Positions 4,701-29,456 of a stretch of DNA of 64,000 nucleotides are shown here, in pieces. Position 1 is the stretch's first letter, and each line of letters opens with the position of its first letter. The translations under genes and the position numbers were made by a program. The notes under the pieces are model-generated. The model had not been told where the DNA came from, did no database searches, and was given only the letters and a program-made list of their open reading frames with translations. Origin of the DNA: an uncultured Pirellulales bacterium (GTDB taxonomy: Bacteria; Planctomycetota; Phycisphaerae; Sedimentisphaerales; Anaerobacaceae); contig CAZCIR010000012.1 of NCBI GenBank assembly GCA_964499145.1, positions 3,603 through 67,602 on the forward strand. Reading direction: 5' to 3'.

Positions 4701-4774
4701 TTTTAGTTTATATCTACAACTTATCCGGTACACTGATGCAATCGAACTTTCAGTTTGTAACTTATAAACCATGA
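1721..4774 (+). CDS. Large secreted repeat protein (tail-fibre-like / beta-helical surface protein), function unknown
   Basis: Track ORF 1682..4774. I prefer ATG 1721, which has AAGGAAAGAAAG upstream and starts a signal peptide MKSAKMLTILVLALAIIL..EVSEA. It carries many copies of GNVGIGT(T/S)xPxxxL(D/E)V and GV(Y/H)G...GYAGYF modules. The N-terminal FTYQGHLYD...YDFAFKLYDA...RWLVIGVR module is common in such surface proteins. Confidence 0.85.
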   Translation: MKSAKMLTILVLALAIILTRPEVSEAAPMGTAFTYQGHLYDANYAANGQYDFAFKLYDANVGGSKVGTDVNLADVDVIDAYFTVELDFNDVNAFNGEARWLVIGVRVGDMNDPNSYTILSPRQEVTPTPYALYAKNAAGDSDWSISGSNMYSSVTGNVGIGTTSPGKKLDVAGGINATDYYYLNDNVLVYNTPGTGNFFYGWDVAVQKHSMATNGVERLVIDSAGNVGIGTTTPSAKLDVVGTLEVVASDTLSVSASNSNTSGYAVYGQASGSSGGGVQGWANNTGNVMNVGGMFQAEGEEGRGVYGAANNTADSINFGGYFRASGGRGRGVAGSCTGTNGVGVYGSASGDNGIGIIGSTSGGTSSKGVYGWASSTTGTNIGVHGKTSSNDGYAGYFDGGRNYFGGNVGIGTTNPTEALEVIGTAKADAFVGDGSSLTNLPLTPDTDWTISDSNMYSDVSGNVGIGTSSPAGTLEVSHDGSSNDLVVDSSTGNIGIGIIPNSSYKLFANTSSDATCGRFVNWAISAYSTGVSGLAQGPGGTNHYGVYGYAHGGTNNWAGYFNGNLYAAGNVGIGTETPAGILQVSHDGSSSDLVVDPNEGNIGIGTAPSSSYKLAAYTNSDVVCGRFNNTGSSGYSYGVAGYAQGPGGTNHLGVYGYAYGATNNWAGYFNGRLYAETAGIGTESPQETLDVDGTVRMTGFKMTGSTASGYVLTSNSTGQGSWQAVPGFSLPYSGSTSSMSRGISVTKTVGGDGIYAQTPGAGYSALEGYATGAGGIGVRGRAGVDSTMAGYFSATSNPNGRAVTGYGAEYGGFFNGDKFGVYGFGSDKGYAQNSGGVFIASGSEGRGAYGGATDPNDVINYGGYFYARGWRGYGVYGEAESATGVNYGVYGKTNSADGYAGYFEGNVKVEGEIKKTVSGGTMERATPIAYAFIGSDGLKDSGTPNVSSTWNAGSQYYEITISGESYFYNTYVTTITLGGSTAGVARTSSVSGKLLVYIYNLSGTLMQSNFQFVTYKP
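3101..3748 (+). repeat. Intragenic tandem duplication, 2 x 324 nt (108 codons each) inside the repeat-protein gene
   Basis: Unit 1 (3101..3424) encodes GNVGIGTSSPAGTLEVSHDGSSNDLVVDSSTGNIGIG...NWAGYFNGNLYAA. Unit 2 (3425..3748) encodes GNVGIGTETPAGILQVSHDGSSSDLVVDPNEGNIGIG...NWAGYFNGRLYAE. The units are in phase and clearly homologous at both nucleotide and protein level. Confidence 0.9.
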
Positions 4775-5551: not shown

Positions 5552-6013
5552 ATGAAGTTATATCTTGTTCAGCATGCAAAAGCGGCTTCGGAGCAGGTGG
5601 ACCCGCAACGGCCGCTGACCGAGGAAGGACGCAGCGATATACAGAAAGTTGCAACATTTATAAAATCTTCGAATCTGTGTGTTGACTATTTGTGGCACAG
5701 CGGAAAGAAACGAGCAGAGCAAACAGCAAAAATTTTAGCTGAAGCTATCAAGATAAAAACATTGACCATCCACGACGGCCTTGGGCCAAATGACGACGTT
5801 AAGGCCTTTAAGGATGAGCTTATCTCGGTCAACGGCGATATAATGGTCGTCGGGCATCTGCCCTTTTTGAGTAAATTAGCATCACTTGTTTTAGCAGGGG
5901 CGGAGTTGGCTAATACAGTAGCATTCAAAAACGCCGGTATCGTATGTATAGACCGCTATGATAAAAATCAATGGCAAATCGACTGGTTCGTAACACCAGA
6001 ACTTATTGTCTAA
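5552..6013 (+). CDS. sixA: Phosphohistidine phosphatase SixA (histidine phosphatase superfamily)
   Basis: A strong RBS AAAGGAGG precedes the start. The N-terminus MKLYLVQHAKA...PLTEEGR carries the RHG-type motif variant, with a later MVVGHLPFLS. At 153 aa the size is typical of SixA. Confidence 0.8.
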   Translation: MKLYLVQHAKAASEQVDPQRPLTEEGRSDIQKVATFIKSSNLCVDYLWHSGKKRAEQTAKILAEAIKIKTLTIHDGLGPNDDVKAFKDELISVNGDIMVVGHLPFLSKLASLVLAGAELANTVAFKNAGIVCIDRYDKNQWQIDWFVTPELIV

Positions 6014-6022: not shown

Positions 6023-6910
6023 ATGACATTTTTATCAGCTAATCCCGGGCCGTTTAGTGAAGCCGTTTCGAAATTGTGGGATTGTATGAATCCATGTATG
6101 CTATGTCCGCGCAGGTGCAAAGTTGATCGCGGCAAAGGCGAAATCGGCTTTTGCGGCATCGGCGATAAGCCGATAGTCAGCTCCGTCGGGCCACACTACG
6201 GCGAAGAAAGCGTTCTTGTCGGTCAGGGGGGATCGGGAACGATATTTTTCGCCGGCTGTAATCTCGGCTGCGTCTTCTGCCAGAACTCCGATATCAGCCA
6301 TCATCGCAGCGGCCGAGAGGTTACAATCGAAGAATTAGCACAATCTATGCTCCGCCTTCAAAGTATCGGCTGCAGTAATATCAACTTCGTCACACCTACT
6401 CACGTTATACCAGCTATTGCGGCTGCTATTGAATCGGCCAAAAAGAAAGGCCTGACTTTGCCTACGGTCTACAATACCGGCGGATACGATTCAGTTGAAA
6501 CGTTAAAAATGCTCGACGGCTTTATAGATATTTATATGCCGGATATGAAGTACTCGGATTCGGCGGCAGCAGAGGAGCTATCCAGCGCAGCGGATTATCC
6601 GCAGGTGAATCGCGAGGCGGTCAAAGAGATGCACCGACAAGCAGGCGATTTACAAATAGAAAAAGGGCTGGCTACACAAGGTCTCTTAATAAGACATTTA
6701 GTTTTACCGGAGAATCTGGCAGGCAGCTTCGAGATAGTAGATTTTTTAGCAGAGCAAATCAGCCAAAAAACAGCGATTAATGTGATGGAACAGTACCATC
6801 CCTGTTATCAGGCACACTTACACCCCAAAATAAACCGCAGACCTACCCCACAGGAAATCGAATCCGTCCGCCGGTACGCAATCAAAAAGGGGCTACGGGT
6901 CATTTCATAG
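6023..6910 (+). CDS. Radical SAM protein, PflX-like (pyruvate formate-lyase-activase homologue)
   Basis: It has the CxxxCxxC cluster GCNLGCVFCQN and an N-terminal Cys-rich CPRRCKVDRGKGEIGFCG. The length and motif order match the PflX/COG1313-type family. Confidence 0.8.
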   Translation: MTFLSANPGPFSEAVSKLWDCMNPCMLCPRRCKVDRGKGEIGFCGIGDKPIVSSVGPHYGEESVLVGQGGSGTIFFAGCNLGCVFCQNSDISHHRSGREVTIEELAQSMLRLQSIGCSNINFVTPTHVIPAIAAAIESAKKKGLTLPTVYNTGGYDSVETLKMLDGFIDIYMPDMKYSDSAAAEELSSAADYPQVNREAVKEMHRQAGDLQIEKGLATQGLLIRHLVLPENLAGSFEIVDFLAEQISQKTAINVMEQYHPCYQAHLHPKINRRPTPQEIESVRRYAIKKGLRVIS

Positions 6911-7522: not shown

Positions 7523-8386
7523 TTATTCATCACCAACCTCGAACTTATAGCTTAGTAACTTGTAAATAAGCTTGGCAGCTAAGAAATCAGGGGCCTTGTT
7601 TTTTACATCAGGACATAATTCAACAACGTCAAAGCCGACAATGTTCTTACTGCCGGAAACCTCCTTCAATAAAACCAGCACGTCATACCACAACAATCCA
7701 CCCGGCTCAGGAGTCCCGGTAGAGGGCATTATAGAAGGGTCAAATACATCCAGGTCTATTGTTATATAAACATTGTCAGAGAGTTTGGAAATAACTTTTT
7801 TAATCCAGGCCGTATTGTTGTATATGTCCTTTGCAAAAAATGCCCTGGACAGATCTAAAGATTTTTTCTCAGAGTAATCCATACTTCTGATACCCACCTG
7901 TACAATCGGACAAAGCTCTTTAATCCGAGCCATAACACAAGCATGGCTATATTTTGAACCGTTGTATTCCTGCCTTAAATCAGTATGGGCGTCCAACTGC
8001 AAAACAGTAAGATTCTCGTATTGCTCCGTATGAGCTTTAATCGAGCCGATGCTGACCGAGTGCTCACCGCCTGTAATGACCGTGAACTTGTTCTTTTCAA
8101 GATAATATTTTGTAATTTGTGTAACTGCCTGAATCATTTCCGCAGTAGAAATATCTCCGCCTATTTCCTCCTCGGTAAATATACCTTTCTTGTAAACCTG
8201 CGAATCAGTCTCTATATCATAAAGCTCCATATTAGCTGAGGCTTCAATTATCGCCGCCGGCCCTTTGTCGGCACCTTTGACCCAGGTGCTCGTTCCATCG
8301 TAGGCGACAGGAATAATAACTACACCAGCATCATCCTGATTGGAATATTCTTCGGGCAGATACCCAAAATTAATTGTTTCTTTCAT
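7523..8386 (-). CDS. speB: Agmatinase (arginase/ureohydrolase family)
   Basis: Mn-binding motifs are present in canonical order: GGEHSVS, LDAHTDL, DLDVFDP and the PEPGG loop. It sits 20 nt downstream of pdaD. Confidence 0.9.
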   Translation of the reverse strand: MKETINFGYLPEEYSNQDDAGVVIIPVAYDGTSTWVKGADKGPAAIIEASANMELYDIETDSQVYKKGIFTEEEIGGDISTAEMIQAVTQITKYYLEKNKFTVITGGEHSVSIGSIKAHTEQYENLTVLQLDAHTDLRQEYNGSKYSHACVMARIKELCPIVQVGIRSMDYSEKKSLDLSRAFFAKDIYNNTAWIKKVISKLSDNVYITIDLDVFDPSIMPSTGTPEPGGLLWYDVLVLLKEVSGSKNIVGFDVVELCPDVKNKAPDFLAAKLIYKLLSYKFEVGDE

Positions 8387-8406: not shown

Positions 8407-8958
8407 TTAATCAAACAGAAACATTGCTATCGCTACCGTTGTTGTCCACAGCCCTTCCAGTCCTTTTGCGGTCTGTGTAATATTGGTAGTCTTAACAAAC
8501 AGGCCGCTGGACCTGTAGGCCTGTTCCTTTTCCGACCATGCTTTGTCCGGGTCCAACTCCAGACCAAAAGTTGTCCCCAGCATACCAGCCGCCAGGTCTT
8601 CCGCCATATCTCCGGCCTGCTGACTATTCATACCGTGGCCGTGTACCTCGCTCAGGTATCCCCACTGATCTTCATCTTTGGGCAGGGCAATTCCTATGGA
8701 AGAGGCCACTAATCGTCCGTGCTCATTAGTATCGGCTCTCGCCAGTACACAATAGGATATTTGGCCAGGAATCAGTTTTTTCAATCCATTTTCCAGGCTG
8801 ACCATTTTGCACCCTGGCGGAAGAATTGATGATACCTGAACTAAATTCTGCTGTGCTACACCAGCTCCTCTTAACGCCGCCTCGAAGGATTTCAGCTGGT
8901 ATTTATGATGTCCAACTCCTTTTGTCAGAAACATTTGCGTGGGGACAGAATTGTTCAT
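8407..8958 (-). CDS. pdaD: Pyruvoyl-dependent arginine decarboxylase
   Basis: The N-terminus VPTQMFLTKGVGHHK and the self-cleavage region NLVQVSSILPPG are typical of PdaD. AGGAG lies upstream, and the 183-aa size fits. Confidence 0.9.
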   Translation of the reverse strand: MNNSVPTQMFLTKGVGHHKYQLKSFEAALRGAGVAQQNLVQVSSILPPGCKMVSLENGLKKLIPGQISYCVLARADTNEHGRLVASSIGIALPKDEDQWGYLSEVHGHGMNSQQAGDMAEDLAAGMLGTTFGLELDPDKAWSEKEQAYRSSGLFVKTTNITQTAKGLEGLWTTTVAIAMFLFD

Positions 8959-9948: not shown

Positions 9949-10053
9949 AAATTTTACTTTGAATAAATGTTATAATATTTTCATATATTACAATACTTAG
10001 AACAAACACATTGTCAAAGAATGTTAACGAGCTTGCTGCAGAGAGGAATTCTG

Positions 10054-10998
10054 ATGGCAATTAAGTTCAATTGTCCGAAATGCGGTAAAAGATTTGTTGT
10101 TAAAGATGAATCGGGAGGTAAAAGGGGTAAATGTTCCTGCGGGGCCGTCATTACAATTCCATCAACGAAAGTTTCCACCTCAGAACTTTCAGGAAACGAG
10201 GCCGTCAAGAAAAACGGTGCCGCTATCTGTGCAACGTGCTTAAAAACTATAAAAACGGGTGAAAACAGAGAAATCATTAACGGACAAGCATACTGCATGA
10301 ATTGTGCAAGCAGAGATACTTCTGCAGGCGATAATGTCCAACCCAGAGGCACTCCTTTGACCGAGGAGTGGGTACGGAAAAGCTTCTACGCCCGACTAAT
10401 CGGCTTTTCAATCGGCATATTAATTGTGACTATTTTCTTATTTTTCAAATATGGAAGTGCTGCTGCCATTGTCAGTTTCATAGTTGGTGTAATATTTACG
10501 ATTACATCGTGCAGATATCTTCTAATCTATGACCACAAATTGGTAAAGAACAAGGTGACATATGAGGAGCAAAAAGCCAAGCTTCGTATTCCAAAAAAGC
10601 CTCAAACAGTAGCAGCAAGTATAGCATTCTTATTGACAGCTTTTCTCAGTCTCTTTTTTGTTTGGGACAAGTCTTACAACCAAGCAAAGTGCTGGGAGTC
10701 GTTTGGGAATTTTATGGTTGAGAACATAGGTGTCAAAATCATACTTTTAATTATAAATATTCCTGTCTTTATTCTCATTGGCAAATGGATGGGTGGTTGG
10801 GAATTTCTCTGGCGATTGTTTAAATTCGACCTAAAATGTCGTTGGCTGCCATTTTTTATCTTCACCAAAAAACATTGGGAGTTCTACGAGGAGGGCGTCG
10901 ATTATGAGAAACTACTCCAGGCTTTCGCCATACCTTTTGTGTGTTTAGCAGTATACTTGGTGGAATACATGATCATTAAATTATTTTTTCTTAGCTGA
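10054..10998 (+). CDS. Membrane protein with two N-terminal zinc-ribbon motifs, function unknown
   Basis: Track ORF 10021..10998. ATG 10054 has AGAGAGG upstream. Motifs are MAIKFNCPKCGKRFVV...GKCSCG and CATC...YCMNCAS, followed by about 5 hydrophobic helices. Confidence 0.7.
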   Translation: MAIKFNCPKCGKRFVVKDESGGKRGKCSCGAVITIPSTKVSTSELSGNEAVKKNGAAICATCLKTIKTGENREIINGQAYCMNCASRDTSAGDNVQPRGTPLTEEWVRKSFYARLIGFSIGILIVTIFLFFKYGSAAAIVSFIVGVIFTITSCRYLLIYDHKLVKNKVTYEEQKAKLRIPKKPQTVAASIAFLLTAFLSLFFVWDKSYNQAKCWESFGNFMVENIGVKIILLIINIPVFILIGKWMGGWEFLWRLFKFDLKCRWLPFFIFTKKHWEFYEEGVDYEKLLQAFAIPFVCLAVYLVEYMIIKLFFLS

Positions 10999-10999
10999 T

Positions 11000-11719
11000 C
11001 TACTCTTTTAGTGTTTTTGCATTATTAACAGCGTAGGCGTTATAATCGTTGTTGAAATAGGCGAAGAAGGCCTTTTTGCCGTTTATATTATCCTTAGCCC
11101 ATTTTGCCCAACCCCGCAGAGAAGGTTTAGAGTAGCTGCCCTGATACCTGCCGGTTGTGCCGTGAAAGCAAAGATAAATCACATCAGAAGTAATTATGCG
11201 AGGGAGTTCCATCAAATCATGGATGCAAAAAGCTGCATTAAACTCCTTTAGCAATTCGTAGGAATCTTCTGAAAACCAGCTTTCGTGCCTGAATTCAAAA
11301 ACAGCGATAGGTTTTTTCGGCAGAACCTTCAAAAAAGCTTTCAGACGGTCAAGGTCTTTATGAAAATTCGGCGGCAATTGATATAAAATAGGGCCGAGAT
11401 TTTTCCCTAAAAGTAACGCCCCCTCAAGAAACCTCTCAAGCGGCTCACCGGCGTCTTTCAGCCGTTTAATATGAGTGATATACCGATTGGCCTTTACTGT
11501 ATAAAGGAAATTTTTCGGAGCTTGTTTGTGCCAGTTCGTGAAAGTTTCCGGCTTTGGCTGGCGGTAGAAGGTATTGTTGATTTCAACGGTGTTGAAACAG
11601 CCGGCGTAGTATTCAAGCCATTTGCTCTTCGATAAATCAACGGGATAAAACCGCCCTGCCCAGTCGCTGTAATGCCAACCCGACGTGCCTATCCGAATAT
11701 CACATTTAGCTTTGCTCAT
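11000..11719 (-). CDS. DUF72 (YecE-like) family protein
   Basis: The N-terminus IRIGTSGWHYSDWAGRFYP and the motif NNTFYRQP are typical of DUF72. It converges on the previous gene with a 1-nt gap. Confidence 0.85.
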   Translation of the reverse strand: MSKAKCDIRIGTSGWHYSDWAGRFYPVDLSKSKWLEYYAGCFNTVEINNTFYRQPKPETFTNWHKQAPKNFLYTVKANRYITHIKRLKDAGEPLERFLEGALLLGKNLGPILYQLPPNFHKDLDRLKAFLKVLPKKPIAVFEFRHESWFSEDSYELLKEFNAAFCIHDLMELPRIITSDVIYLCFHGTTGRYQGSYSKPSLRGWAKWAKDNINGKKAFFAYFNNDYNAYAVNNAKTLKE

Positions 11720-11846: not shown

Positions 11847-11876
11847 GGTTCCGGTATATAAGTGAACTGGAAAATA

Positions 11877-12107
11877 ATGGAATTCGGTCCGCAACAAATC
11901 GGTAAATGGTTAATTTTAATGGGGATTACCATCGCACTGGTCGGGGGTATGGTGATGATATTAGGCCGAACAGGCCTGTTTAAGCTACCCGGCGATTTAG
12001 AATTCGGCGGCAAAAACTGGCGGATATATCTACCCATAGCGAGCTGTATAATAATTTCAATTGTCCTGACGCTTATCCTGTGGCTTATCAATTATTTTCG
12101 CAGGTGA
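11877..12107 (+). CDS. DUF2905-family small membrane protein
   Basis: Track ORF 11862..12107; ATG is at 11877. The sequence IGKWLILMGITIALVGGMVMILGRTGLFKLPGDLEFGGKNWRIYLPIASCIIISIVLTLILWLINYF matches the characteristic DUF2905 pattern. Confidence 0.7.
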   Translation: MEFGPQQIGKWLILMGITIALVGGMVMILGRTGLFKLPGDLEFGGKNWRIYLPIASCIIISIVLTLILWLINYFRR

Positions 12108-12109: not shown

Positions 12110-15100
12110 TTACTCAGCCTTCTTATAAAATTCGGCTTCTTCGTCGGAAAGTTTTCCCTCCTGAATCATTTTGCGAATGCGCTGCAAATCGACGTCCCTG
12201 GGCCGGCCGATGCCGGATGTCGAAACAACAGGCCGACTAATGTCGGCGGGTGTAACATGCAGAAACCTCTCCACTGAGACCATCGATACGAAAATTCCCA
12301 CTAAAACAACCACCACCACAAGATAACGAGATAAATAAGAAACGTGAGACGGAAAACGCTGGTCTTCGGCCTGATAGCGACACCTGTCACAATATATACA
12401 ATCCAGATGGTCTTTCGGGGTGAGGCCGAACTCGCATCTGCTGAATCTTTTTGCGGGTAAAAATCGCTTCAGCACTACACAATTGTTGAGCAGTGACAAA
12501 AAAGCCCCCACCGGACACAAATATCGGCACCAAAAGCGAGTATAGAAAATCGAGCCAATTAAAGCTATCGCTATTATCGAGCCAATACTAACCGAATACA
12601 TCGTGGAACTACCTGAAAAGGCCGCTATAAGTGGGTCTGCCGCCAGCGTAGTCCGGTTTCTGGAAACGAAAAACACTATTATAAAAACAAAAAGAACCAC
12701 ATATTTGACAAATCCTGCCTTCTGCATCGATACATTCGGTATGGCGGACTTGAACCTGCGAGGAACAACATAACCGAGCAACTCCTGCGCAGCGCCAAAG
12801 GGACAAATGTAGCCGCAATAAATGTTGCCGAAGATTATAACCAGAAGCGGCACGGCTGCAATTAACAGGAATGTCCCCGACAATTTTACAGCGGGGCTGT
12901 GCAAAGATAATACGGTCATCATCTGTTCGCTTGAATACTGAGCGTTCAGAACAATACCGCCGACCACAAGATTAAAACAAAGAACCACCAGCCTGCTCCA
13001 GAATCCGCCGCGGAAAATTACAATAAAACTAAGCACGAAAGCACTTATCAGATATATGGCGGGTATATCGGGCCGATACACTTGCTGCGAAGGAAGCGGA
13101 GATGGCAGAGCCTGGTTAAGAATTTCACCGGCGAACCTGTAACCTGATTTTTCCAGTGCTGAAAGAACAGCACCGGAGCTGAAAGTAGCGCCGGTTACTG
13201 CGTTAACACCGGCGAAAGGCTCGGCCTGGAAAAGGAGACGGCCGGTGAGAAGTTCACGCCACCGGCCAAGAAGCTCAAGATATGCAGGAGTCTCGCTGGA
13301 TGATATTATATGGAAATTAATTAACTTGCCAGCAGCATCGACATAGATGGCCAGATTTATCTTTCCTCCAAAACCGCTGACCTCCGGCGCCAGGTCCTGC
13401 GAGCTAAAGATGTAGCCATTCAGTTTATCGCTGGAATCATAAACCCGAAAATAACTGATTTTTCGAGCATTTTTCTCAATAACCGCTGATGCCTCTTCAA
13501 TGCGTGCCCGGCCAGCCAGTGCCTGAGCAGCATACTTCGGCAACGACGGCCTCAACTCCACGCCGGCTTTAACAAGCAAGTTGGAGCAGAGAATAACCAT
13601 CAGGCCGATGCCAAAAAGGATGTAGCCGAGCTTGCGCCGACTAAAAGTAGTTGCAGCAAAGTGAACTTTTTCCAGCTTGTATAGTCTCAGTGCGGCAGGC
13701 GGTATATTGGCCAGAATAAACAAAGCAAATATAAATAGTGTTACCTTCGTTCCAAGAACAGGAACAAGTACAAGGCCTGTCAGTAAGCCACCTGCTGAGG
13801 CGCCAATGTGGTCAGCGGTTTCCAACTTGCTGCCGGCCTGTCCCGCTTCAAAAGCAGAGTCAGCAAGCTGGCCGGCGGCGAGCGGAAAATAACCGCCGGT
13901 ACATAGGCCGCAAAGAACAAATGCGGCTGCGAAACTGCGATGTGTCCATTGTTCACCCGGCCAAAAGATAATTGCGTCCAGGATTAGTGTATGTATAACT
14001 ATCACAGCTAACAGGTAACTCGTAACTCGTGACCCTTGACCGGAGCGACGGGCCATAAGCAACGAAATAAAAACCGCCCCGACGGTTAAGCCCACCATAA
14101 ACAAAGAAGAAATAACCCCAATGTAAAGATACAGCGAACCAAAATAAGTTTGATACAAATACATCAATACAATCACCACCCCGATGCCCACCCAGCCGGC
14201 TGAGAAAACCAAAAACGAACTATCAAAGCTGGAGGCATTGCCTTGCTGAGCTGATTTCAAAATATAAACAGCACGCAAAACTATGAAAACCAGAATAGGA
14301 ACAACAAACGTCAATGGGCCGGTCAAGACCAGGTATTTCATAAATTTTGTGCCCTGCGCTCCACCGTAAGGCGCCCCGTGGACTGATTGCTTTGCCGCAA
14401 GCAACAAACTATATAAGTGCGTCAGGGGCCTGGAATCACGATTAATAAGCAATCTATCGGGTAAATCCGCACCCGAATACATCTGTAGAGCGACAGCGGC
14501 ACGGTCCGGCAAATAAACAGAAAGCAAAGCATCCGGAGGAAAAATATCCACACTACCGTTTATGGAAGCAAATCGCTGCCGTAAAATCCCCGGGTCACCG
14601 CTGAGCTTGCCGGAGTCAGAAACAATAAACCATGTATCTTCCCCGGGCGTCAGGACAAGCTGTAAGAAAACCTTCTCAAGTGTCAGTTTCGTCGAGGCCC
14701 CGAGGTTGATCAGCTCGGTTCCCATAATGTTTTCCCCACCTGTTATACGAACTGCCAGCACACCGCCGGGCCGCAACGCCTCCTTAACCTGTTGATAAAA
14801 TTCAAGCGTGTAATACCGGTTCAAAACCGAACTGGTCGCATCGGGCAGATTAAGGATTACCAAATCATAATATTTACTCTGCTTAGCAAGCAGTGAGCGA
14901 ACATCACCTGCGAGGCGGGAAAAACGCTCATCGCTTACCTTAAACTCCGGCGGTATAAATCTGTCAATCTCCATAACATATTCGCTGTCAGAGTGTGCCC
15001 AGGTTACACGCTCAATTTGCGGCAGGTGCAGGAATTCATAGCAGAGGCCTAATCCCGAGCCAATGACCAAAACCCTCTTAGTATCAGGATTTTGACAAAG

Positions 15101-15940
15101 GCCGATGGTAGCTATCCTGCCGGTGCTGCCTTTATCAGGCAGCACCTCGCAAACACTACCCTGGCGAACAGCTACCCACTGGCCGTGATAGATTCCATAG
15201 AGATATTCCGCCTGGGCCGTTCGGAAAGAACCCTTGAAAGCTTCTTTAGGAAGCAGCTTTTGCCATTTTATAATTTGCAACTGTTCTGACAGCTTCTTGT
15301 CAACACCGGCAATCAGACAAACGCAAATACATACCGGCACAAAAGCCCATACCCAGCTCTTCAACCTGGCAAGCCGCACACAAAAGAAAGAAAAAGAAAC
15401 AATAAAAGCAAGTATGAAGAAAATCCTTGCCGAACTTACACCGACTCCCAAAAGAACCGTTGTTCCCAGTCCTCCAAGAAAACTTCCAGCCGCTTCGATA
15501 ATGTACACACGCGAAACGGCGAATTCCTGTCCATTGCGAACCCATCGACAGGCAATTGGAAATAACATCCCCGTGATGAGACTGACCGGAGCATTAACCA
15601 CTATTGACAAAAGCAGGATAACCTTTATGGACAGTAATGCGTAAGATTCAACCCCTGCAAGCTCACGCGCCTGAATAATCAAAATAATCTCCGCAATAAA
15701 AGCCGGCAGGTAACACAAAAACAGAAATTCTATATTTTTAAGCAGCTTTTCAGCAAAGGCTTTAGCTCTGTATACGAGCAGCGCCCCCAAACCAACCCAT
15801 AAAAACCACGAACCGAAGAAGACGCCGACACTTATGTCACTACCCTCAAAGGTGGTTAAAAAATCGCGAAAAAGCAAAGCTTGGGCGGCGATTGTGAACA
15901 GTCCGTAACTAAATATCAGCAGGCTGCGGGCAAATCTCAT
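12110..15940 (-). CDS. 1276-aa polytopic chimera: membrane domain + spermidine-synthase-like (class I MTase fold) domain + second membrane block + FMN_bind domain + NapH/NosR-type 4Fe-4S polyferredoxin membrane domain
   Basis: The SpeE-like motifs are RVLVIGSGLGL and YDLVILNLPDATSSVLNRYYTLEFYQQVKEALRPGGVLAV (about 14520..15100). The FMN_bind motif is GVNAVTGATFSSGAVLSALEK (about 13150..13520). Two CxxxCP motifs, CGYICPFGAAQELL and CRYLCPVGAFLSLL, plus CIYCDRCRY sit between helices (about 12300..12980). Its ATG overlaps the stop of the upstream gene (ATGA). Confidence 0.85.
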   Translation of the reverse strand: MRFARSLLIFSYGLFTIAAQALLFRDFLTTFEGSDISVGVFFGSWFLWVGLGALLVYRAKAFAEKLLKNIEFLFLCYLPAFIAEIILIIQARELAGVESYALLSIKVILLLSIVVNAPVSLITGMLFPIACRWVRNGQEFAVSRVYIIEAAGSFLGGLGTTVLLGVGVSSARIFFILAFIVSFSFFCVRLARLKSWVWAFVPVCICVCLIAGVDKKLSEQLQIIKWQKLLPKEAFKGSFRTAQAEYLYGIYHGQWVAVRQGSVCEVLPDKGSTGRIATIGLCQNPDTKRVLVIGSGLGLCYEFLHLPQIERVTWAHSDSEYVMEIDRFIPPEFKVSDERFSRLAGDVRSLLAKQSKYYDLVILNLPDATSSVLNRYYTLEFYQQVKEALRPGGVLAVRITGGENIMGTELINLGASTKLTLEKVFLQLVLTPGEDTWFIVSDSGKLSGDPGILRQRFASINGSVDIFPPDALLSVYLPDRAAVALQMYSGADLPDRLLINRDSRPLTHLYSLLLAAKQSVHGAPYGGAQGTKFMKYLVLTGPLTFVVPILVFIVLRAVYILKSAQQGNASSFDSSFLVFSAGWVGIGVVIVLMYLYQTYFGSLYLYIGVISSLFMVGLTVGAVFISLLMARRSGQGSRVTSYLLAVIVIHTLILDAIIFWPGEQWTHRSFAAAFVLCGLCTGGYFPLAAGQLADSAFEAGQAGSKLETADHIGASAGGLLTGLVLVPVLGTKVTLFIFALFILANIPPAALRLYKLEKVHFAATTFSRRKLGYILFGIGLMVILCSNLLVKAGVELRPSLPKYAAQALAGRARIEEASAVIEKNARKISYFRVYDSSDKLNGYIFSSQDLAPEVSGFGGKINLAIYVDAAGKLINFHIISSSETPAYLELLGRWRELLTGRLLFQAEPFAGVNAVTGATFSSGAVLSALEKSGYRFAGEILNQALPSPLPSQQVYRPDIPAIYLISAFVLSFIVIFRGGFWSRLVVLCFNLVVGGIVLNAQYSSEQMMTVLSLHSPAVKLSGTFLLIAAVPLLVIIFGNIYCGYICPFGAAQELLGYVVPRRFKSAIPNVSMQKAGFVKYVVLFVFIIVFFVSRNRTTLAADPLIAAFSGSSTMYSVSIGSIIAIALIGSIFYTRFWCRYLCPVGAFLSLLNNCVVLKRFLPAKRFSRCEFGLTPKDHLDCIYCDRCRYQAEDQRFPSHVSYLSRYLVVVVVLVGIFVSMVSVERFLHVTPADISRPVVSTSGIGRPRDVDLQRIRKMIQEGKLSDEEAEFYKKAE

Positions 15941-17538
15941 TTCTCGCTCTCACTAAAAACATCCGCCTGGAAAACAAGAAAGGTAGCACCATCCTTCCAG
16001 GCATCTTCAGGTAATCCTGCCTTCAAAGACAATTGTGTGAGCATCCGGTTTACATCCCAGCCCTGCTCGGGCGCAACCTGAGGCAAGAACACGGCGGAGC
16101 GACCATTTTTACTCAGTACTACGCCGTCTATGCCGATTCTGATTTCATCCGGCGAAGCAATTGGGGCAGGCGGAGTCAATGCCGATATCTCGATTGTAAT
16201 ATCATTGCATTCAGCCACTGTTACCGGCAGGAAACGCCTATCGTAGACGCCGGCATTAATGGCATTAAAAATAACTGACCTGTACAAAGGCTGCCGCGGA
16301 AAAATATCACCTATACAGCCTCTAAGCTGAAAATTTTCTTTAAGCGTTACGAACGCCGCCCGCTGACGTTTCATCGCATCGCTGACAGTGATATTCAACT
16401 CGGATGCCTCCGGAGCTCGCTGCCTCTGAAGAAAATAAACTAATGATTTACGGGCCAACGCCAAAAGCTGCTTCTTATCTTCCTCATTCAATTTGTGGAC
16501 GTTCGCCTCCGGCTTAATTTCAGAGGAGTTTCCCCACTTCCCGGAAAAGACAATCGAAAAGTAACTGACCGAGTTGGTGTAATCACCCGTCAATTCGCCG
16601 GAAGTTGCATACTTAACTAACTTAGCTTCAACGGATTTGTCAAACATAGAAAGCAATATTGCTATTGGCACAAACCCACATATTGTTGCACCGGTTTTGT
16701 TACGATATTCCAAAAAGCCCTTGAAATCTAAGGCCTTAATATGCTCATACGCTCCCATATCAAGCTGCTTTAGCTGCTCAGGAATGTTTTCTCTGAAGGG
16801 GACATAGCCGTAGTTTGGGCCAAAATGGGTAAAATCCGAGCTTGCAATAACGAGCGTGTCATCGTCAACCAAACTTTTCAAAATAGCACCGGCTTTTTCA
16901 ATAGTCTCTTCTGAGCAATCGCCGGCCACAATCAGTACAAGTTTAAAGTCCTTCTGCACATATTGCAGCAACGGCACTTCTATCTGAGTGCTGTGCTCGT
17001 TTTCGTTTACCTGCGGTATGTTCTGAAAAATTGAATGCTTTAAAAGCTTATCTATAAATTCCACATCCAGCGGTATCTGTCCGAGCGGCGTTTCATAATG
17101 CGTTGTCCTCGGCACACTCAGCACCTGCTCCATAGAGACACGGTGACTGGGGCCAATAATAACAACCCGTTTATATTTTTTGGATGTGGCTTTCAATCCA
17201 AAGGCCGCTGTCCGGCCGGAGAATTGATAGCCCGCGTGCGGAAGGATAAGGGCAATAACATTATCTACAGGTTCGACCTCGGCTTTTTTGAAAAATCCAT
17301 CGATTTGTTTGTTAAGTGCGTCAGCATCGGCAGGATACCAACTGCCGGCGAGTGAGGAACGAAGAACAGACTTGGCCAGCTTTGCAGGCTCCTTTTTTTC
17401 AGGGGCTGTTACTTCCTTAACCGGAGCCGCCTTTTTTTTGCATGTAGTTACAAAAAGTGTGCACAAGATACATACAAGCGGAATCACTAATTGCAAAGAA
17501 TACCTTTTATTGTCGGATTCACTCAAATGTTTTTTCAT
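15937..17538 (-). CDS. amrB-amrA: AmmeMemoRadiSam system proteins B (Memo-like) and A (AMMECR1) fused in one polypeptide, with an N-terminal lipoprotein-like signal/anchor
   Basis: Track ORF 15937..17547 (GTG). ATG 17538 has GGAG 9 nt upstream. Memo motifs are LPHAGYQFSG, IGPSH and SSDFTHFG. The AMMECR1 motif is AAFVTLKENFQLRGCIGDI. The N-terminus is MKKHLSESDNKRYSLQLVIPLVCILCTLFVTTC, followed by a K/P/E/A-rich tether. Confidence 0.85.
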   Translation of the reverse strand: MKKHLSESDNKRYSLQLVIPLVCILCTLFVTTCKKKAAPVKEVTAPEKKEPAKLAKSVLRSSLAGSWYPADADALNKQIDGFFKKAEVEPVDNVIALILPHAGYQFSGRTAAFGLKATSKKYKRVVIIGPSHRVSMEQVLSVPRTTHYETPLGQIPLDVEFIDKLLKHSIFQNIPQVNENEHSTQIEVPLLQYVQKDFKLVLIVAGDCSEETIEKAGAILKSLVDDDTLVIASSDFTHFGPNYGYVPFRENIPEQLKQLDMGAYEHIKALDFKGFLEYRNKTGATICGFVPIAILLSMFDKSVEAKLVKYATSGELTGDYTNSVSYFSIVFSGKWGNSSEIKPEANVHKLNEEDKKQLLALARKSLVYFLQRQRAPEASELNITVSDAMKRQRAAFVTLKENFQLRGCIGDIFPRQPLYRSVIFNAINAGVYDRRFLPVTVAECNDITIEISALTPPAPIASPDEIRIGIDGVVLSKNGRSAVFLPQVAPEQGWDVNRMLTQLSLKAGLPEDAWKDGATFLVFQADVFSESEK

Positions 17539-17539
17539 A

Positions 17540-17722
17540 TTAACCACTCCATTTGCCCTGTCTTAGAAGACCCTGTAAAGGCTTTATGAAACCGGGATAC
17601 TTCTGAAGTTTAAGTGCCCGGATGAACTTACGAGGTGAAGCTTTTTTTGCTACCCAGCAGGCGCCAACAATAATTGCTGAGCCAGCTTTTAATAATTCCT
17701 GAATGAATTTTCTTCGCGTCAT
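17540..17722 (-). CDS. 60-codon ORF with a twin-arginine (Tat) signal-like N-terminus, function unknown
   Basis: Sequence: MTRRKFIQELLKAGSAIIVGACWVAKKASPRKFIRALKLQKYPGFIKPLQGLLRQGKWSG. Its ATG overlaps the amrS stop (ATGA), and its stop lies 1 nt before the amrB-amrA ATG. The track lists it as 17540..17728 with a TTG start. Coding status is supported only by this tight packing and the Tat motif. Confidence 0.45.
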   Translation of the reverse strand: MTRRKFIQELLKAGSAIIVGACWVAKKASPRKFIRALKLQKYPGFIKPLQGLLRQGKWSG

Positions 17723-18702
17723 CTCCAAACTCCATATATTTCTTTACCGCAATCAGGACAACAGCCTTGCTTGAGACGGTTCTGCATAATGATATAACCG
17801 ATGCGTTCAATAAGTAACTTCCTGCAGCTGGGACAATATGTGTTCTGGCCGCCCTTACGCCGGACATTTCCTATATAAACGTAATTCATCCCTTCGCTTA
17901 TTGCAATTTCGCGGGCTAAATCAAGCGTCTTTTCAGACGTCGGCGGCAGATGCCGCATCTTATACCGCGGGAAAAATCGCGAAAAATGAAGCGGAGTCTC
18001 ACCGCCGAGATTCGCTTTGATCCAACGAACTAATTGGCGAATTTCTTTCGGCTTGTCGTTCAATGTCGGAATAATCAGATTCGTAACTTCTACCAGTATG
18101 CCGCTGGCCTTTGCTAAAACCATCGCTTTCTGCACCGGCTTTAAGGTCGCAGAGCAAACTTTACGGTAAAACTCATCCGTTATCCCCTTTAAATCTATGT
18201 TAGCAGCATCGACAACTTCTAACAGCTTTTTCCAAGGCTCTTCATTTATATAGCCCGCCGTAACAAGAACATTTCGTATATTCGCCTTCCTAGCTAATTT
18301 TGACGTGTCATAGGTGTATTCATAATAAATAACCGGCTCAGTATACGTATATGCAATTGAGGAGAAGTTTTGCGATTTTGCCATTTCAACAACTTTCTCA
18401 GGCGGGCAGAGATATGCAGGCGTATCTTCCGGATTAGCCTGTGATATTTCCCAGTTCTGGCAGTTGAGACAATGTAGATTACAACCGGCAGTTGCAATAG
18501 AAAGTATGCGACTTGCCGGCAGGAAATGAAAAAGTGGCTTTTTCTCAATCGGGTCATCGTGGATTGAGCAAGGGTATCCATAAACCACCGTCCGCAGGAC
18601 ACCATCGATGTTGATTCTAACACGGCACTCGCCACTTTGGCCGGGTTCAATCAGGCATCTCTTTGGACATAGCTCACACTGAACTTTCAATTTAAGCCCC
18701 AC
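17719..18702 (-). CDS. amrS: AmmeMemoRadiSam system radical SAM enzyme
   Basis: The N-terminal Cys motif is VQCELCPKRCLIEPGQSGECRVR and the radical SAM cluster is GCNLHCLNCQNWEISQ. Its size, and its adjacency to Memo and AMMECR1, define the family. A GTG start is assumed. Confidence 0.85.
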   Translation of the reverse strand: MGLKLKVQCELCPKRCLIEPGQSGECRVRINIDGVLRTVVYGYPCSIHDDPIEKKPLFHFLPASRILSIATAGCNLHCLNCQNWEISQANPEDTPAYLCPPEKVVEMAKSQNFSSIAYTYTEPVIYYEYTYDTSKLARKANIRNVLVTAGYINEEPWKKLLEVVDAANIDLKGITDEFYRKVCSATLKPVQKAMVLAKASGILVEVTNLIIPTLNDKPKEIRQLVRWIKANLGGETPLHFSRFFPRYKMRHLPPTSEKTLDLAREIAISEGMNYVYIGNVRRKGGQNTYCPSCRKLLIERIGYIIMQNRLKQGCCPDCGKEIYGVWR

Positions 18703-18922: not shown

Positions 18923-18937
18923 TCACTTCATTCATAA

Positions 18938-19028
18938 CGGAGAGGGCGGGATTCGAACCCGCGCAGCGGGTTTATACCCACTGGACGGTTTAGCAAACCG
19001 TTGCCTTCAGCCACTCGGCCACCTCTCC
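18938..19028 (-). tRNA. tRNA-Ser, anticodon GCU, class II (long variable arm), no encoded CCA
   Basis: The minus strand reads GGAGAGGTGGCCGAGTGGCTGAAGGCAACGGTTTGCTAAACCGTCCAGTGGGTATAAACCCGCTGCGCGGGTTCGAATCCCGCCCTCTCCG. It has a 7-bp acceptor stem, an anticodon stem ACGGT/ACCGT with loop TTGCTAA, a long extra arm, and the T-loop GGTTCGAATCC. Confidence 0.95.
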
Positions 19029-19568
19029 GAATAATTCTCTGATAAGCTATATTTTTAGAGCTCTTATTGCAAGAAGATTAAGGGTAAGCTGCACTGTTCT
19101 GACTTTATGAGTAGAAACAGCTTGAGTATTAAAGGAAGGCTTTCATTGGTAATTCTGTTGCAATTATCAAATAACATTTATAGCCTCAATATACCCATTT
19201 TTTATAAGGCGCTGCCTTTTGGCATTTATTGTTTATTCGCATGGTAGCCGCTTGCATTAAGAAATTACCAGAATCCGGTTTCGTTCTGCGCAGTACTGAG
19301 AAACTTCATCTTTAACCGCATATCCTACCTCAATAATGATATATCAGCTATTAGGGAGCAGATATTATAGGTCTTTATTAAAAGATTTCAATAAAAGAAC
19401 AAATCTGCGTCTTTTTTCCTCGTTATGATTTTAAGGTGTTTTAGTCATTTGTGCAAAAAAATAGCTCCGCATTAAAAAAAAAACAGGGCAATACCAGCGA
19501 AATTGTCGATATAAGGAACTATGAAGTAATTTATTATCGGTATAAATGAATTTGAAAGGGGGTATATT

Positions 19569-20765
19569 ATGAAGGTGTCAAAGTTTACCTACTTAGTTTT
19601 TGTATCAATCTTATTATTGGTGGGGGTTCTGGCGGAATCTGTGAAGGCAGTTGAAAATGAGGGTTTTCAGTACTTCAAAGTGCTCTCAACGGTTGAATAC
19701 AATGGCAAGAAACAGTTTATCAACCAGATAGAATCACTGTTTACCGTGAGAAAGCAATCTGTAGCGGGTGATAATGTTCAATACTTTATATCTTCAAATG
19801 AGTTTGAATTAGGTAGAAGCGGTGAGGAATTTTCATTCATCCTGGATAAAAAGACCCGTCAGATATCCGGCCTGGGCAGAGACTTGACGCTGGTTGAAAG
19901 GGTAAACAACGAGTGCGTCAAATCACTGAAGGAAGTGGGAGCTGAGAATATCGGAAAAACATGGAATCAATCCTTCGACCTTTCATTCCTTGGCGATGCT
20001 TTTCCACAGAAGCTGGAATTTACTTTGACAGCGATTAAGTTGAAAACAGCAGCGCTCGGCGAACTGATGGCGGTTAGGGCACTATCCGGGCCCTTTGTTG
20101 TAAAAGCCGTCAAATCAGATGGTAAAATCGGAGATATCAAGTCAAAAATCAGTGCAGTTTATCTCTTCGATTCGGAAGTTGAGCAGGTTTATATGAGTAT
20201 TTCTGCTTTCACGGCCGGCACGAATATTAACGGCTTCAATGAAAAACTACGGCACGAGGTAGCTACATATATGACAGATGAACTTGGCGAGCCGATTAAT
20301 TTCGACGGCCTTAACAAAAAGTTTGAAAAACTTGTAAAGAAAGTTGGGCTTGTCAAGAAAAATGTCAAGATTAAGAAGGAAACAACACTGCCTCAATGGG
20401 CCAAATTTGAAGGTTTATTTATGAGCCAGATAGGCGGTGTGTGTGCCGCAATAGCGTGTGAAGGGGCTGTGAATCCCGTTGCTATGATTTGTATGCCTGT
20501 TGCCCGTACACTTTCAATGCAGAGCCTCGGTACATTAGCCTCGGTCAGTAGTGCATCAGCAGTAAGTGCCGCACTTACAAGTAGTGTTCCAGCTGTCGGC
20601 GGTATGAACCTGGCAGGCGGTGCAACAATTATGGGAGTCGGCGTTGGGACAGCAGGTGCTGTAGCCGGTGGTACCGTTGGTACAGTCGCCGTCGCCGGCG
20701 GCAGTGGCAGCAGCGGCAGCAGCAGCAGCGGCGGCGGTGATAACTCTACGCCTACTTCTCCGTAA
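19569..20765 (+). CDS. Secreted protein of unknown function with an Ala/Gly/Val/Ser-rich C-terminal region and a GS triplet-repeat tail
   Basis: The RBS AAAGGGGG precedes the start and the signal peptide is VFVSILLLVGVLAESVKA. The last ~120 aa are hydrophobic and low-complexity, ending GGSGSSGSSSSGGGDNSTPTSP. That tail is encoded by a (GGC/AGC)n run at 20697..20738. Confidence 0.7.
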   Translation: MKVSKFTYLVFVSILLLVGVLAESVKAVENEGFQYFKVLSTVEYNGKKQFINQIESLFTVRKQSVAGDNVQYFISSNEFELGRSGEEFSFILDKKTRQISGLGRDLTLVERVNNECVKSLKEVGAENIGKTWNQSFDLSFLGDAFPQKLEFTLTAIKLKTAALGELMAVRALSGPFVVKAVKSDGKIGDIKSKISAVYLFDSEVEQVYMSISAFTAGTNINGFNEKLRHEVATYMTDELGEPINFDGLNKKFEKLVKKVGLVKKNVKIKKETTLPQWAKFEGLFMSQIGGVCAAIACEGAVNPVAMICMPVARTLSMQSLGTLASVSSASAVSAALTSSVPAVGGMNLAGGATIMGVGVGTAGAVAGGTVGTVAVAGGSGSSGSSSSGGGDNSTPTSP

Positions 20766-20952: not shown

Positions 20953-21783
20953 TTGAGATATCCGGCAAAAATATGGAGATTCGCTCAAGACAGGAAGGTC
21001 GTTTTTGCATCCACCTTATTTTTATTTTTGGCGGGTTGCGGTCCATCTTTATCGTCCCCTGAGGACGTCACAAAGTTTGAAAAAGCAGGTCCCATCCAAG
21101 CAGTAATGGATTTTGACCGGTTGGCTAAAGGCAAGCCCGGCCCCTATCGAGTTATTCCAGGCGATGTACTGGAATTTCAAATGCATGTCAGCCTGCGTAT
21201 TATCTCCTCCGAGTTACCGGATTGGCTTCGACCGTCATACGGGTACAAAGAAATTGAGCCGTACCTGGTCCGTGTGAGTGATGCAGGAACTGTTACATTG
21301 CCGATTATCGGCGACATACAAGTTGCCGGTAAAACGCTTGCCGAGATAGAACAAGCGGTTAAAAACGCCTATTATCCCAAGTATGTTGTAAATCCTCCCA
21401 TGCTGGTCTGTCAGGTAAGGGAATACCAGGGTGAACATGAGAGGGTTTTTACTGTTGTGGGATTGGTGAACAAACCTGATGCGTATCCCTATCCACCAGA
21501 TGTTCAATATAACTTAATGGAGGCATTGGCATTTGCCGGCGGGCTCGATATGGTTGCTGATCCGCAATATGTTAAGGTCTTTCGGCAGGATGCTGACGGC
21601 AAAGTGCTCCAGACGACTTTTGGAATAGGCGACAAGGCCTTAACAAAAGCGTATGCCATTGCAATAAAACCGGGGGATGTCATATATGTGAACCACACAG
21701 TAAGTACGCGTATCAACAAATTTCTATCTGACGTATTTCATATAACAGTTGGTGCAAATGTTAGTGCTGCAGAGTTTAAATAA
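20953..21783 (+). CDS. wza: Polysaccharide export lipoprotein (Wza-like; Poly_export + SLBB)
   Basis: A TTG start has GGAGGA 7 nt upstream. The lipobox is LFLAGC. Motifs YRVIPGDVLEF and VTLPIIGDIQVAGKTLAEIEQAVKNAY are typical of the family. Confidence 0.85.
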   Translation: MRYPAKIWRFAQDRKVVFASTLFLFLAGCGPSLSSPEDVTKFEKAGPIQAVMDFDRLAKGKPGPYRVIPGDVLEFQMHVSLRIISSELPDWLRPSYGYKEIEPYLVRVSDAGTVTLPIIGDIQVAGKTLAEIEQAVKNAYYPKYVVNPPMLVCQVREYQGEHERVFTVVGLVNKPDAYPYPPDVQYNLMEALAFAGGLDMVADPQYVKVFRQDADGKVLQTTFGIGDKALTKAYAIAIKPGDVIYVNHTVSTRINKFLSDVFHITVGANVSAAEFK

Positions 21784-21803
21784 ATTCGCATTATAAGGGA
21801 AAT

Positions 21804-24395: not shown

Positions 24396-24421
24396 GTTGC
24401 GTTTTGAGGAAAATCTAAAGT

Positions 24422-29445: not shown

Positions 29446-29456
29446 AATTCGCTATA

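Follow-up and report, generated by a model that had tools for sequence, protein, structure and literature searches.

We analysed a 64,000-nucleotide stretch of DNA from an uncultured Pirellulales bacterium (GTDB lineage Planctomycetota; Phycisphaerae; Sedimentisphaerales; Anaerobacaceae), comprising positions 3,603 to 67,602 of contig CAZCIR010000012.1 in assembly GCA_964499145.1 and hereafter called the window, with a focus on a single open reading frame (ORF) at 12110..15940 (-). This ORF begins with ATG and encodes a membrane protein of 1276 aa that is composed of three modules and predicted to contain 21 transmembrane (TM) helices, and is referred to here as the 21-TM protein. It is the last gene of an operon, all on the (-) strand, in which the order is a radical SAM enzyme (rSAM; SAM, S-adenosylmethionine), a 60-aa RRxF peptide, a fusion of Memo and AMMECR1, and the 21-TM protein. 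The successive junctions read ATGA, TAA-t-ATG and ATGA, i.e. 4-bp overlaps or a 1-nt gap, and in the last of these the stop codon of Memo-AMMECR1 overlaps the ATG of the 21-TM protein. All coordinates given below for parts of this operon refer to the (-) strand.

The rSAM gene (17719..18702) encodes a PflA-like AmmeMemoRadiSam enzyme without a signal peptide, identified with TIGR04337 (369.6 bits; cut-off: 220) and Pfam Radical_SAM. The Memo-AMMECR1 fusion (15937..17547, probable start ATG 17538) corresponds to AmmeMemoRadiSam proteins B and A, with NCBIfam scores of 231 bits for Memo (TIGR04336, cut-off: 26) and 162.3 bits for AMMECR1 (TIGR04335, cut-off: 99), and its sequence contains the Memo metal-site motifs PHAGY, GPSH, DFTH and ICG as well as LRGCIG, the AMMECR1 motif. 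Its N-terminal extension of 60 residues forms a hydrophobic signal with the lipobox-like sequence LFVTTC. All of the Memo-AMMECR1 proteins inspected that are linked to a homologue of the 21-TM protein carry a Sec signal, a lipobox or an anchor at the N-terminus (for example ISGC in locus L017, SFA-QE in L018, AASC in L043, ATAC in L031, LSAC in L036 and FVTTC in the window), and a Memo paralogue in L023 that is not adjacent to a gene of the 21-TM family on its contig begins directly at the domain. These N-termini imply that the linked Memo-AMMECR1 proteins are periplasmic, unlike the cytosolic archaeal and eukaryotic proteins; a homologue search with the window protein returned close Phycisphaerae relatives only, and hence no cytosolic comparison set.

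The 60-aa protein encoded between rSAM and Memo-AMMECR1 (17540..17722) has a twin-arginine motif (TRRKFIQ) and a hydrophobic helix, as well as YPG and, at its C-terminus, WSG. Across phyla the ORF follows the pattern M-x-RR-x-F-[LIV], hydrophobic helix, basic stretch, YPG and W-x-G-stop, with R3, R4, F6, P43, G44, W58 and the C-terminal G60 invariant. The gene is called in more than 120 protein clusters, mostly as 'hypothetical protein', and one homologue is named 'twin-arginine translocation signal domain-containing protein' by NCBI; neither Pfam, relaxed thresholds included, nor NCBIfam holds a family for it. Variants from Nitrospirota and Desulfomonilaceae end in FWKRLG, FWKRLS or MFARRI, those of L031 and L037 end in LAG without the Trp, and the ORF was not found in the linked loci L030, L039, L041, L046, L048 and L072.

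This gene context is widely conserved. Both rSAM and Memo-AMMECR1 accompany the full-length gene in 21 of the 24 loci with enough flanking sequence, which represent at least 8 phyla. The four-gene order occurs in all Phycisphaerae loci examined (L002-L011, L024 and L026) and in metagenome-assembled genomes (MAGs) of Kiritimatiellae (L017), Thermodesulfobacteriota (L018), Hydrogenedentota (L019), Desulfomonilaceae (L021), Nitrospirales (L033), Myxococcales (L031) and a deltaproteobacterial lineage (L028), and all-against-all clustering of the ORFs of 40 loci returned these four genes as the only conserved ones. In L037 and L041 the N-terminal and C-terminal modules are encoded separately, one on each strand; the N-terminal module is found by itself in L030 and L039, and the C-terminal module in L043, L046, L048 and L072; all of these loci adjoin an rSAM gene, and L030, L039 and L043 also adjoin Memo-AMMECR1. 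The conserved context of the 21-TM protein is the operon with rSAM, 60-aa peptide and Memo-AMMECR1, and the linkage is kept when the fusion splits.

The composition of the protein agrees with the preliminary description, which was made from the sequence of the window without database searches and which reported one uninterrupted 1276-codon ORF joining a SpeE-like domain to a NosR/NapH-like membrane module. The upstream AmmeMemoRadiSam and small-peptide genes had escaped notice there. Pfam places Spermine_synth (PF01564) at residues 275-397 (42.5 bits; gathering cut-off: 22.9) and FMN_bind (PF04205; FMN, flavin mononucleotide) at residues 856-931 (34.5 bits; cut-off: 22), followed by two matches to Fer4_5, the CX3CP unit (54 bits; cut-off: 22). 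Every motif quoted earlier was found in the stated order, i.e. VLVIGSGLGL (291-299), DLVILNLPD (359-367), TGATFS (916-921), CGYICPFG (1042-1049), CRYLCPVG (1138-1145) and CIYCDRC (1181-1187). In NCBIfam there were only sub-threshold matches, to the membrane SpeE model PRK03612, NosR, NapH and RnfG. A frameshift or assembly artefact hiding two ordinary genes, the case raised earlier as one that would undo the finding, is ruled out by three contigs on record with an identical protein and by more than 700 full-length homologues. A homologue search scored 721 proteins, and among the 120 listed nearly all are full length, 64-79% identical and carry the same three Pfam domains; these come from Sedimentisphaerales/Phycisphaerae MAGs and are named merely '4Fe-4S binding protein' by NCBI. 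In an exhaustive search without a word index against representatives clustered at 50% identity, the end-to-end architecture recurred in more than 150 clusters, the most distant about 29% identical, and 1118 representatives matched at E <= 1e-30. Full-length homologues span at least eight phyla and all members of the family are from uncultured organisms. The three-domain fusion is, judged by this sequence record, genuine and under selection; each module is of a known kind, and many deposited records of the fusion bear names that say little about it.

For topology, two AlphaFold2 models were built, each from 60-sequence alignments, covering residues 1-800 (mean predicted local distance difference test score: 91.8; predicted template-modelling score: 0.92) and residues 520-1276 (89.5 and 0.88, respectively). 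The models hold seven TM helices before the SpeE-fold domain, eight between it and FMN_bind and six after, 21 in total, and the first two numbers match the 'about 7' and 'about 8' of the preliminary description. The first unit, TMD-A (residues 1-213; 15302..15940), consists of helices 2-30, 35-58, 60-89, 105-137, 141-165, 170-191 and 196-211, with the N-terminus predicted cytoplasmic from the model and the positive-inside pattern, and a conserved membrane-embedded E149. Beyond the SpeE-fold domain lie TM8 and a second 7-TM unit, TMD-B (together residues 527-795; 13556..14362), with an invariant D710. In a profile-profile comparison by hhalign, TMD-A (6-175) aligned in register with residues 575-738 (E 7.6e-5), and therefore TM9-15 are taken as a parallel duplicate of TM1-7 and TM8 as a return helix. 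The conserved residues E149 and D710 fall at matching places in the two units, in the middle of the membrane. Similarity of the TM units to transporters of the major facilitator superfamily (MFS) was weak in Foldseek (E >= 0.009), the matches including amine transporters such as VMAT2; the Foldseek list for the model of residues 1-800 was filled by SpeE entries, so that analogues of TMD-A could not show. Pfam at relaxed thresholds gave no match for the TM units of the window protein, and some homologues have weak MFS_1 matches.

The sides of the membrane were assigned from helix counts, charge bias and homology. The mean number of Lys and Arg per short loop was calculated over 30 diverse homologues (29-74% identity); the residue frequencies given below likewise come from 30 diverse homologues. 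Through the TM1-15 region, loops predicted to be inside averaged 2.5, 2.8, 2.4, 2.1, 3.0, 2.6, 2.4 and 4.2, loops predicted to be outside averaged 0.0, 1.3, 0.1, 0.3, 0.7 and 0.0, and the alternation has no exception. Since seven helices precede the SpeE-fold domain, eight separate it from the FMN domain and the loop charges alternate, the SpeE-fold domain is predicted to be periplasmic. The placement of both soluble domains on defined membrane faces, which had been proposed as a check, hence predicts that SpeE-fold and FMN_bind domains are on the same, periplasmic side, with the N-terminus, the CX3CP motifs and a four-Cys site on the cytoplasmic side.

The SpeE-fold domain (residues 226-520; 14381..15265) comprises an N-terminal beta-hairpin part and a Rossmann part, and was identified with PF01564, by sequence matches to PDB entries 1uir, 3anx and 6o65, and by Foldseek. 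The top 50 Foldseek matches are all SpeE aminopropyltransferase structures, the best being 1UIR (E 6.5e-11), over about 290 aligned columns with a TM-score of about 0.7 on the window protein; the whole SpeE fold is kept, the beta-hairpin part included. The hallmark residues were mapped by HMMER alignments to Thermus SpeE and Arabidopsis SPDS1. Human D104, in the GGG(D/E)G motif, aligns to L297, and the position is L, Y, F, I or W and always hydrophobic; human E124 aligns to H316 (H, D, P, N or S); and human D173 aligns to N364, with N16, D3, G2, E2 and C1 among the commonest residues. Human D155 aligns to D346 (D27, E3) and human D176 to D367 (D in 22 of 30). From the human and T. maritima structures we take D104 to bind the amine of decarboxylated SAM (dcSAM) and to exclude SAM, E124 to bind ribose, D155 to bind adenine, D173 to be the catalytic Asp and D176 to be the second Asp of the putrescine site. 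Motif I keeps only its first Gly. The SpeE equivalog models score far below their cut-offs (TIGR00417: 36.5 against 249.55; PRK00811: 51.6 against 260; PRK03612: 60.5 against 472). When the catalytic Asp and dcSAM-binding residues were compared, as had been suggested, the equivalents of two hallmarks stood (D346, and mostly D367) and three were replaced (L297, N364 and H316). D318, D359 and R375 are invariant within the family and D346, R348, N374, T378, E380 and F381 nearly so; these strongly conserved pocket residues rule out a degenerate scaffold lacking all cofactor-binding residues, the second way in which the finding was expected to fail. Because the hallmarks are not kept and the family has invariant or nearly invariant residues of its own, the domain is neither a canonical aminopropyltransferase nor a decayed scaffold, and its active site has been remodelled into a selected pocket.

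The C-terminal third carries the redox module. The FMN_bind domain (residues 802-940; 13121..13537), predicted periplasmic, was assigned with PF04205 and by Foldseek matches to RnfG and NqrC. Its candidate flavinylation motif T916-G-A-T919-F-S921 (13178..13195) fits [S/T]G[A/S]TX[S/T]; G917, A918 and T919 are invariant and the pattern T-G-A-T-x-S is kept in the homologues, and in the AlphaFold2 model the long helix of the domain begins at T919. In PceC, the FMN domain was found experimentally to face outward and to be flavinylated on the homologous Thr, in the work from which this consensus is taken, and the FMN domains of both PceC and NosR are experimentally exocytoplasmic (PMC5928378). The domain is followed by a NapH/NosR-like membrane module (residues 959-1154, TM16-TM20; 12479..13066), as judged by the two Fer4_5 matches, weak NCBIfam NosR/NapH matches and the model, in which the first CX3CP (CGYICP; 12800..12817) is placed at the cytoplasmic end of TM18 and the second (CRYLCP; 12512..12529) at the cytoplasmic end of TM20. 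The residues C1042, C1046 and P1047 as well as C1138, C1142 and P1143 are invariant, as are all four Cys of the cytoplasmic motif C1169-X11-C1181-X2-C1184-X2-C1187 (12380..12436), presumed to be a single [4Fe-4S] site. The protein has this one four-Cys motif and no second ferredoxin-type [4Fe-4S] motif, Pfam Fer4 being not significant (E 0.42). The scores for the NosR equivalog (54.3; cut-off: 1000) and napH (38.9; cut-off: 213) are likewise low, Foldseek and PDB sequence searches matched RnfG, NqrC and isolated FMN domains and no solved NapH/NosR membrane module, and no nos or nap gene, nosZ included, is among the window ORFs scanned. The protein ends with TM21 (residues 1201-1229) and a conserved tail, PRDVD...GxLSxxEAxYY, predicted to be periplasmic (together 12113..12340). 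The tail motif G-x-LS-x-x-EA-x-YY-(K/R)(K/R) (12113..12253) is weakly SHOCT-like (E 0.02, relaxed Pfam), and many homologues of about 1185 aa are without TM21 and tail. A tail-like motif, (S/T)xxE(A/E)xY, is also present in the small RRxF peptides of L031 and L037.

Taken together, we consider it probable that the 21-TM protein belongs, as dedicated membrane subunit, to an AmmeMemoRadiSam system of a variant, periplasm-facing type, in which a NosR/PceC-like flavinylated conduit is joined to an MFS-like module with a remodelled SpeE-fold domain and serves the exported Memo-AMMECR1. This model builds on computed features, namely the domains present and their 21-TM topology, the catalytic residues of SpeE that have been lost, the conserved operon, and the signal peptides of Memo-AMMECR1. 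The C-terminal third would act as a transmembrane electron conduit of the NosR/PceC type, its four-Cys site and two CX3CP motifs linking a cytoplasmic or quinol electron pool to the periplasmic FMN, which ApbE would attach covalently to T919. The N-terminal two thirds would be two homologous, parallel 7-TM units, weakly MFS-like and with buried E149 and D710, that carry the periplasmic SpeE-fold domain; this module may move a pathway intermediate outward from the cytoplasmic rSAM step, or hand it over outside, and the SpeE-fold domain could be the periplasmic binding or handover site beside the FMN. The periplasmic FMN would then exchange electrons, as donor or as acceptor, with Memo-AMMECR1, which is exported and often has a lipid anchor. 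An exported redox step would thereby be supplied with both an electron route (Fe-S site, CX3CP motifs and covalent FMN) and a substrate route (TM units and/or the peptide with the twin-arginine motif). What we infer beyond the computed features is that the protein is flavinylated, which way electrons flow, that it physically touches Memo-AMMECR1, that the TM units transport, and what the substrate might be. Proteins of this kind have been described by Méheust et al. as NapH-like flavinylated modular conduits from membrane or cytosolic electron pools to extracytosolic oxidoreductases, with most partners unknown; spermidine synthase, Memo and AMMECR1 are not mentioned there (PMC8238504).

Several observations weigh against this model. 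Neither the ORFs scanned in the window nor the conserved neighbourhood include an apbE gene, so that the argument for flavinylation is motif conservation by itself. The rSAM enzyme is cytoplasmic and its usual partners would be outside, so that an unproven transmembrane transfer step is needed, and the MFS likeness of the TM units that might perform it is weak, as given by the Foldseek values above. The role of the SpeE-fold domain is left unexplained by the mechanism, and conservation of D346, the equivalent of the adenine-binding Asp, leaves room for an adenosyl ligand. Sidedness comes from helix counting and charge bias and not from three-dimensional inspection of the models, and the family is known from sequences and predicted structures alone. 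Three full-length loci, L015, L034 and L045, have no rSAM or Memo-AMMECR1 within 6-10 kb of flank; in this branch the partners may be elsewhere in the genome, or the protein may have another role. L015 is a Lentisphaerae MAG, and L034 and L045 are Nitrospirae MAGs.

Other explanations were also weighed. The preliminary description proposed a SAM- or polyamine-dependent reaction that needs membrane-delivered electrons, and in its full form this would make the SpeE-like domain an active alkyl-transferase that uses SAM or dcSAM to transfer an aminopropyl or methyl group to a polyamine or amine, fed with electrons by the NosR-like module and tied to the agmatine-to-putrescine genes pdaD (8407..8958 (-)) and speB (7523..8386 (-)). 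Both genes are indeed 3-4 kb from the ORF, as had been noted, and no soluble speE or speD is among the window ORFs scanned. The complete SpeE fold with Spermine_synth above threshold, the mostly conserved D346 and D367, and the amine transporter VMAT2 among the MFS matches would all suit such an enzyme. However, pdaD and speB accompany the gene only in the window and in its close Sedimentisphaerales relatives L003 and L004 and in no locus from another phylum; their proximity is local synteny and not a conserved association, and on this ground a functional tie to polyamine synthesis is rejected. The dcSAM-specific Asp is replaced by a hydrophobic residue in all 30 diverse members, the catalytic Asp position varies among N, D, G, E and C, motif I and the three equivalog scores are equally unlike those of SpeE, and aminopropyl or methyl transfer needs no electrons. 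In addition, the predicted location of the domain is the periplasm, and neither SAM nor dcSAM would be expected there. The proposed reaction is therefore not supported, and we regard this explanation as very improbable.

The 60-aa protein invites a different proposal, namely a peptide-maturation platform in which it is the substrate: modified by rSAM in the cytoplasm and exported by twin-arginine translocation (Tat), its YPG...WxG-COOH end would be processed by periplasmic Memo and AMMECR1 to yield a peptide-derived cofactor or a ribosomally synthesized and post-translationally modified peptide (RiPP), with the SpeE-fold pocket docking the peptide and FMN supplying electrons. Memo has a LigB-type dioxygenase fold, and peptide-derived cofactors have precedents in MauA (tryptophan tryptophylquinone, TTQ), QhpC (cysteine tryptophylquinone, CTQ) and PqqA (pyrroloquinoline quinone, PQQ). 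The ORF is kept across phyla with invariant residues, is found in many clusters, one of them bearing the Tat-signal name, and is translationally coupled between rSAM and Memo-AMMECR1; in addition, an Aravind-group paper reports that peptide-processing systems contain rSAM domains related to those of Memo-AMMECR1 systems (PMC7159879). On the other hand, the ORF was not found in six linked loci and its ends diverge in the variants listed above, the 40-locus clustering showed no conserved RiPP recognition element, protease or exporter nearby, and the protein could equally be a small membrane-anchored structural subunit. Peptide maturation is hence unlikely in our estimate, and the same low standing applies to a transmembrane assembly line in which Memo-AMMECR1 would convert the rSAM-modified, Tat-exported peptide into a new peptide-derived redox cofactor or RiPP while the 21-TM protein provided docking and FMN electrons; were it true, Memo and AMMECR1 would gain a substrate, and by extension the cytosolic archaeal and eukaryotic pairs would modify an aromatic residue or metabolite in a redox-dependent manner. 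Alternatively, the system could be a quinol:acceptor module of a generic kind, used in respiration or detoxification, its NapH-like part oxidising menaquinol and periplasmic Memo-AMMECR1 being the terminal reductase or oxidase for an environmental substrate, or for an isoprenoid or quinone in the membrane that the TM units handle, while rSAM only matures a cofactor. Memo contexts have reportedly been tied to aliphatic isoprenoid modification in a 2019 study by Burroughs and colleagues. Such a module would be in keeping with the modular partnering of NapH-like flavinylated proteins with periplasmic reductases and oxidases (PMC8238504) and with the link between menaquinol and its reductase proposed for PceC (PMC5928378). 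We nevertheless judge it quite improbable: no cytochromes, molybdoenzymes or other respiratory genes are conserved nearby in the 40-locus clustering, the triad of rSAM, Memo and AMMECR1 is, by the NCBIfam definitions, a widespread housekeeping-type cassette that also occurs in organisms without such respiration, and the SpeE-fold domain is left unexplained.

Conservation of MEMO1 and AMMECR1 extends from archaea to humans, and the two have been linked to disease through cell migration and metastasis and through the AMME contiguous-deletion syndrome. In the literature searched, no paper giving a biochemical reaction for MEMO1 or AMMECR1 was found and AmmeMemoRadiSam received only passing mentions. 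The searchable literature yielded no account of the fusion, of an exported Memo-AMMECR1 or of the four genes as a system, although Burroughs et al. 2019 (JBC 294:10211), the earlier analysis of Memo gene contexts that bears most on this question, may mention the association. If the 21-TM protein is the membrane subunit proposed here, bacteria that export Memo-AMMECR1 would add a flavin/Fe-S conduit and a transporter-like module to it in one polypeptide, from which it follows, as testable ideas, that the Memo/AMMECR1 step consumes or releases electrons and that it acts on something carried across the membrane from the rSAM step. The operon would also be the first conserved functional context for one branch of the NapH-like flavinylated systems and for one branch of the membrane-fused SpeE-like proteins, and the 21-TM family is a probable example of a SpeE fold acting outside the cytoplasm.

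The remainder of the window was also surveyed. A tRNA-Ser(GCU) gene, 18937..19029 (-), is directly upstream of the rSAM operon on the same strand, and downstream of the 21-TM gene are DUF2905, a small membrane protein in convergent orientation (11862..12107 (+)), and DUF72 (11000..11719 (-)), both conserved within Sedimentisphaerales loci only and not in other phyla. Just beyond speB and pdaD, a second PflA-like radical SAM gene stands beside a histidine-phosphatase-family gene (5552..6013 (+) and 6023..6910 (+)); this radical SAM gene has a weak TIGR04337-like match (37 bits) and homologues in the same neighbourhood of L004 and L024. A cluster of about 40 kb (20953..61983 (+)) serves to make and export polysaccharide and encodes a Wza-like exporter, a Wzz/tyrosine-kinase-like protein, a CpsB phosphatase, two Wzy_C proteins, an ABC-2/Wzt transporter, NeuB, a CMP-sugar cytidylyltransferase, an asparagine-synthase-like protein, many glycosyltransferases and methyltransferases, and a B12-binding radical SAM enzyme (57145..58617); no speE, speD or apbE is present in this 20.9-62 kb region. 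Three ORFs of considerable size had no Pfam match, i.e. 1682..4774 (+) with 1030 aa, 10021..10998 (+) with 325 aa and 19569..20765 (+) with 398 aa; the first two had no NCBIfam match either, and the third has a signal-peptide-like N-terminus and a Gly/Ser/Ala-rich C-terminus.

Compared with known systems, all three hallmark proteins of the classical AmmeMemoRadiSam system (TIGR04335, TIGR04336 and TIGR04337), to which the eukaryotic MEMO1 and AMMECR1 are related, are present here above the NCBIfam cut-offs. In contrast to the classical system, Memo and AMMECR1 are fused and bear an export signal, and two further conserved genes, for the 60-aa RRxF peptide and the 21-TM protein, are added; to our knowledge, the classical system has no membrane component. 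With SpeE (Thermus thermophilus 1UIR/3ANX and human SRM 2O05), the 21-TM protein shares the whole fold and the motif order beta1-GxG, beta2-D, GD and beta4-D..D. It differs in that GGG(D/E)G has become G-x-G-(L/Y/F), the catalytic Asp is Asn or variable and the ribose-binding Glu is His or variable, while the gatekeeper loop has gained the nearly invariant N374 and the invariant R375; moreover, its domain is placed between TM7 and TM8 and predicted to be periplasmic, whereas SpeE is cytoplasmic with access to dcSAM. A multi-TM N-terminal region followed by a SpeE-fold domain is also seen in the 'polyamine aminopropyltransferase' PRK03612 and the 'fused MFS/spermidine synthase' NF037959. Against these models the 21-TM protein scores 60.5 (cut-off: 472) and 15.5 (cut-off: 40), its active-site residues are different, and its chain continues beyond the SpeE-fold domain with a second 7-TM unit and the NosR-like module.

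On the redox side, the FMN_bind fold relates the protein to RnfG and NqrC, as seen in the Foldseek and PDB sequence matches, and in these the Thr homologous to T919 bears covalent FMN, but they are single-TM subunits of ion-pumping complexes and no other Rnf or Nqr subunits are found here. The closest parallels are NosR of Pseudomonas stutzeri and RdhC/PceC of Dehalobacter and Desulfitobacterium, which share an outward FMN_bind domain with the Thr motif and later TM helices with two CX3CP motifs at the inner face; a cytoplasmic Cys-rich end is common to the 21-TM protein and NosR, and, as with NosR and PceC, the gene adjoins that of the periplasmic enzyme it would serve. NosR has two ferredoxin-type motifs where the 21-TM protein has one CX11CX2CX2C site. 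Relative to both NosR and PceC, the 21-TM protein has about 800 additional N-terminal residues, comprising 15 TM helices and the SpeE-fold domain, as well as TM21 and the tail, and its proposed partner is neither NosZ nor a reductive dehalogenase but Memo-AMMECR1.

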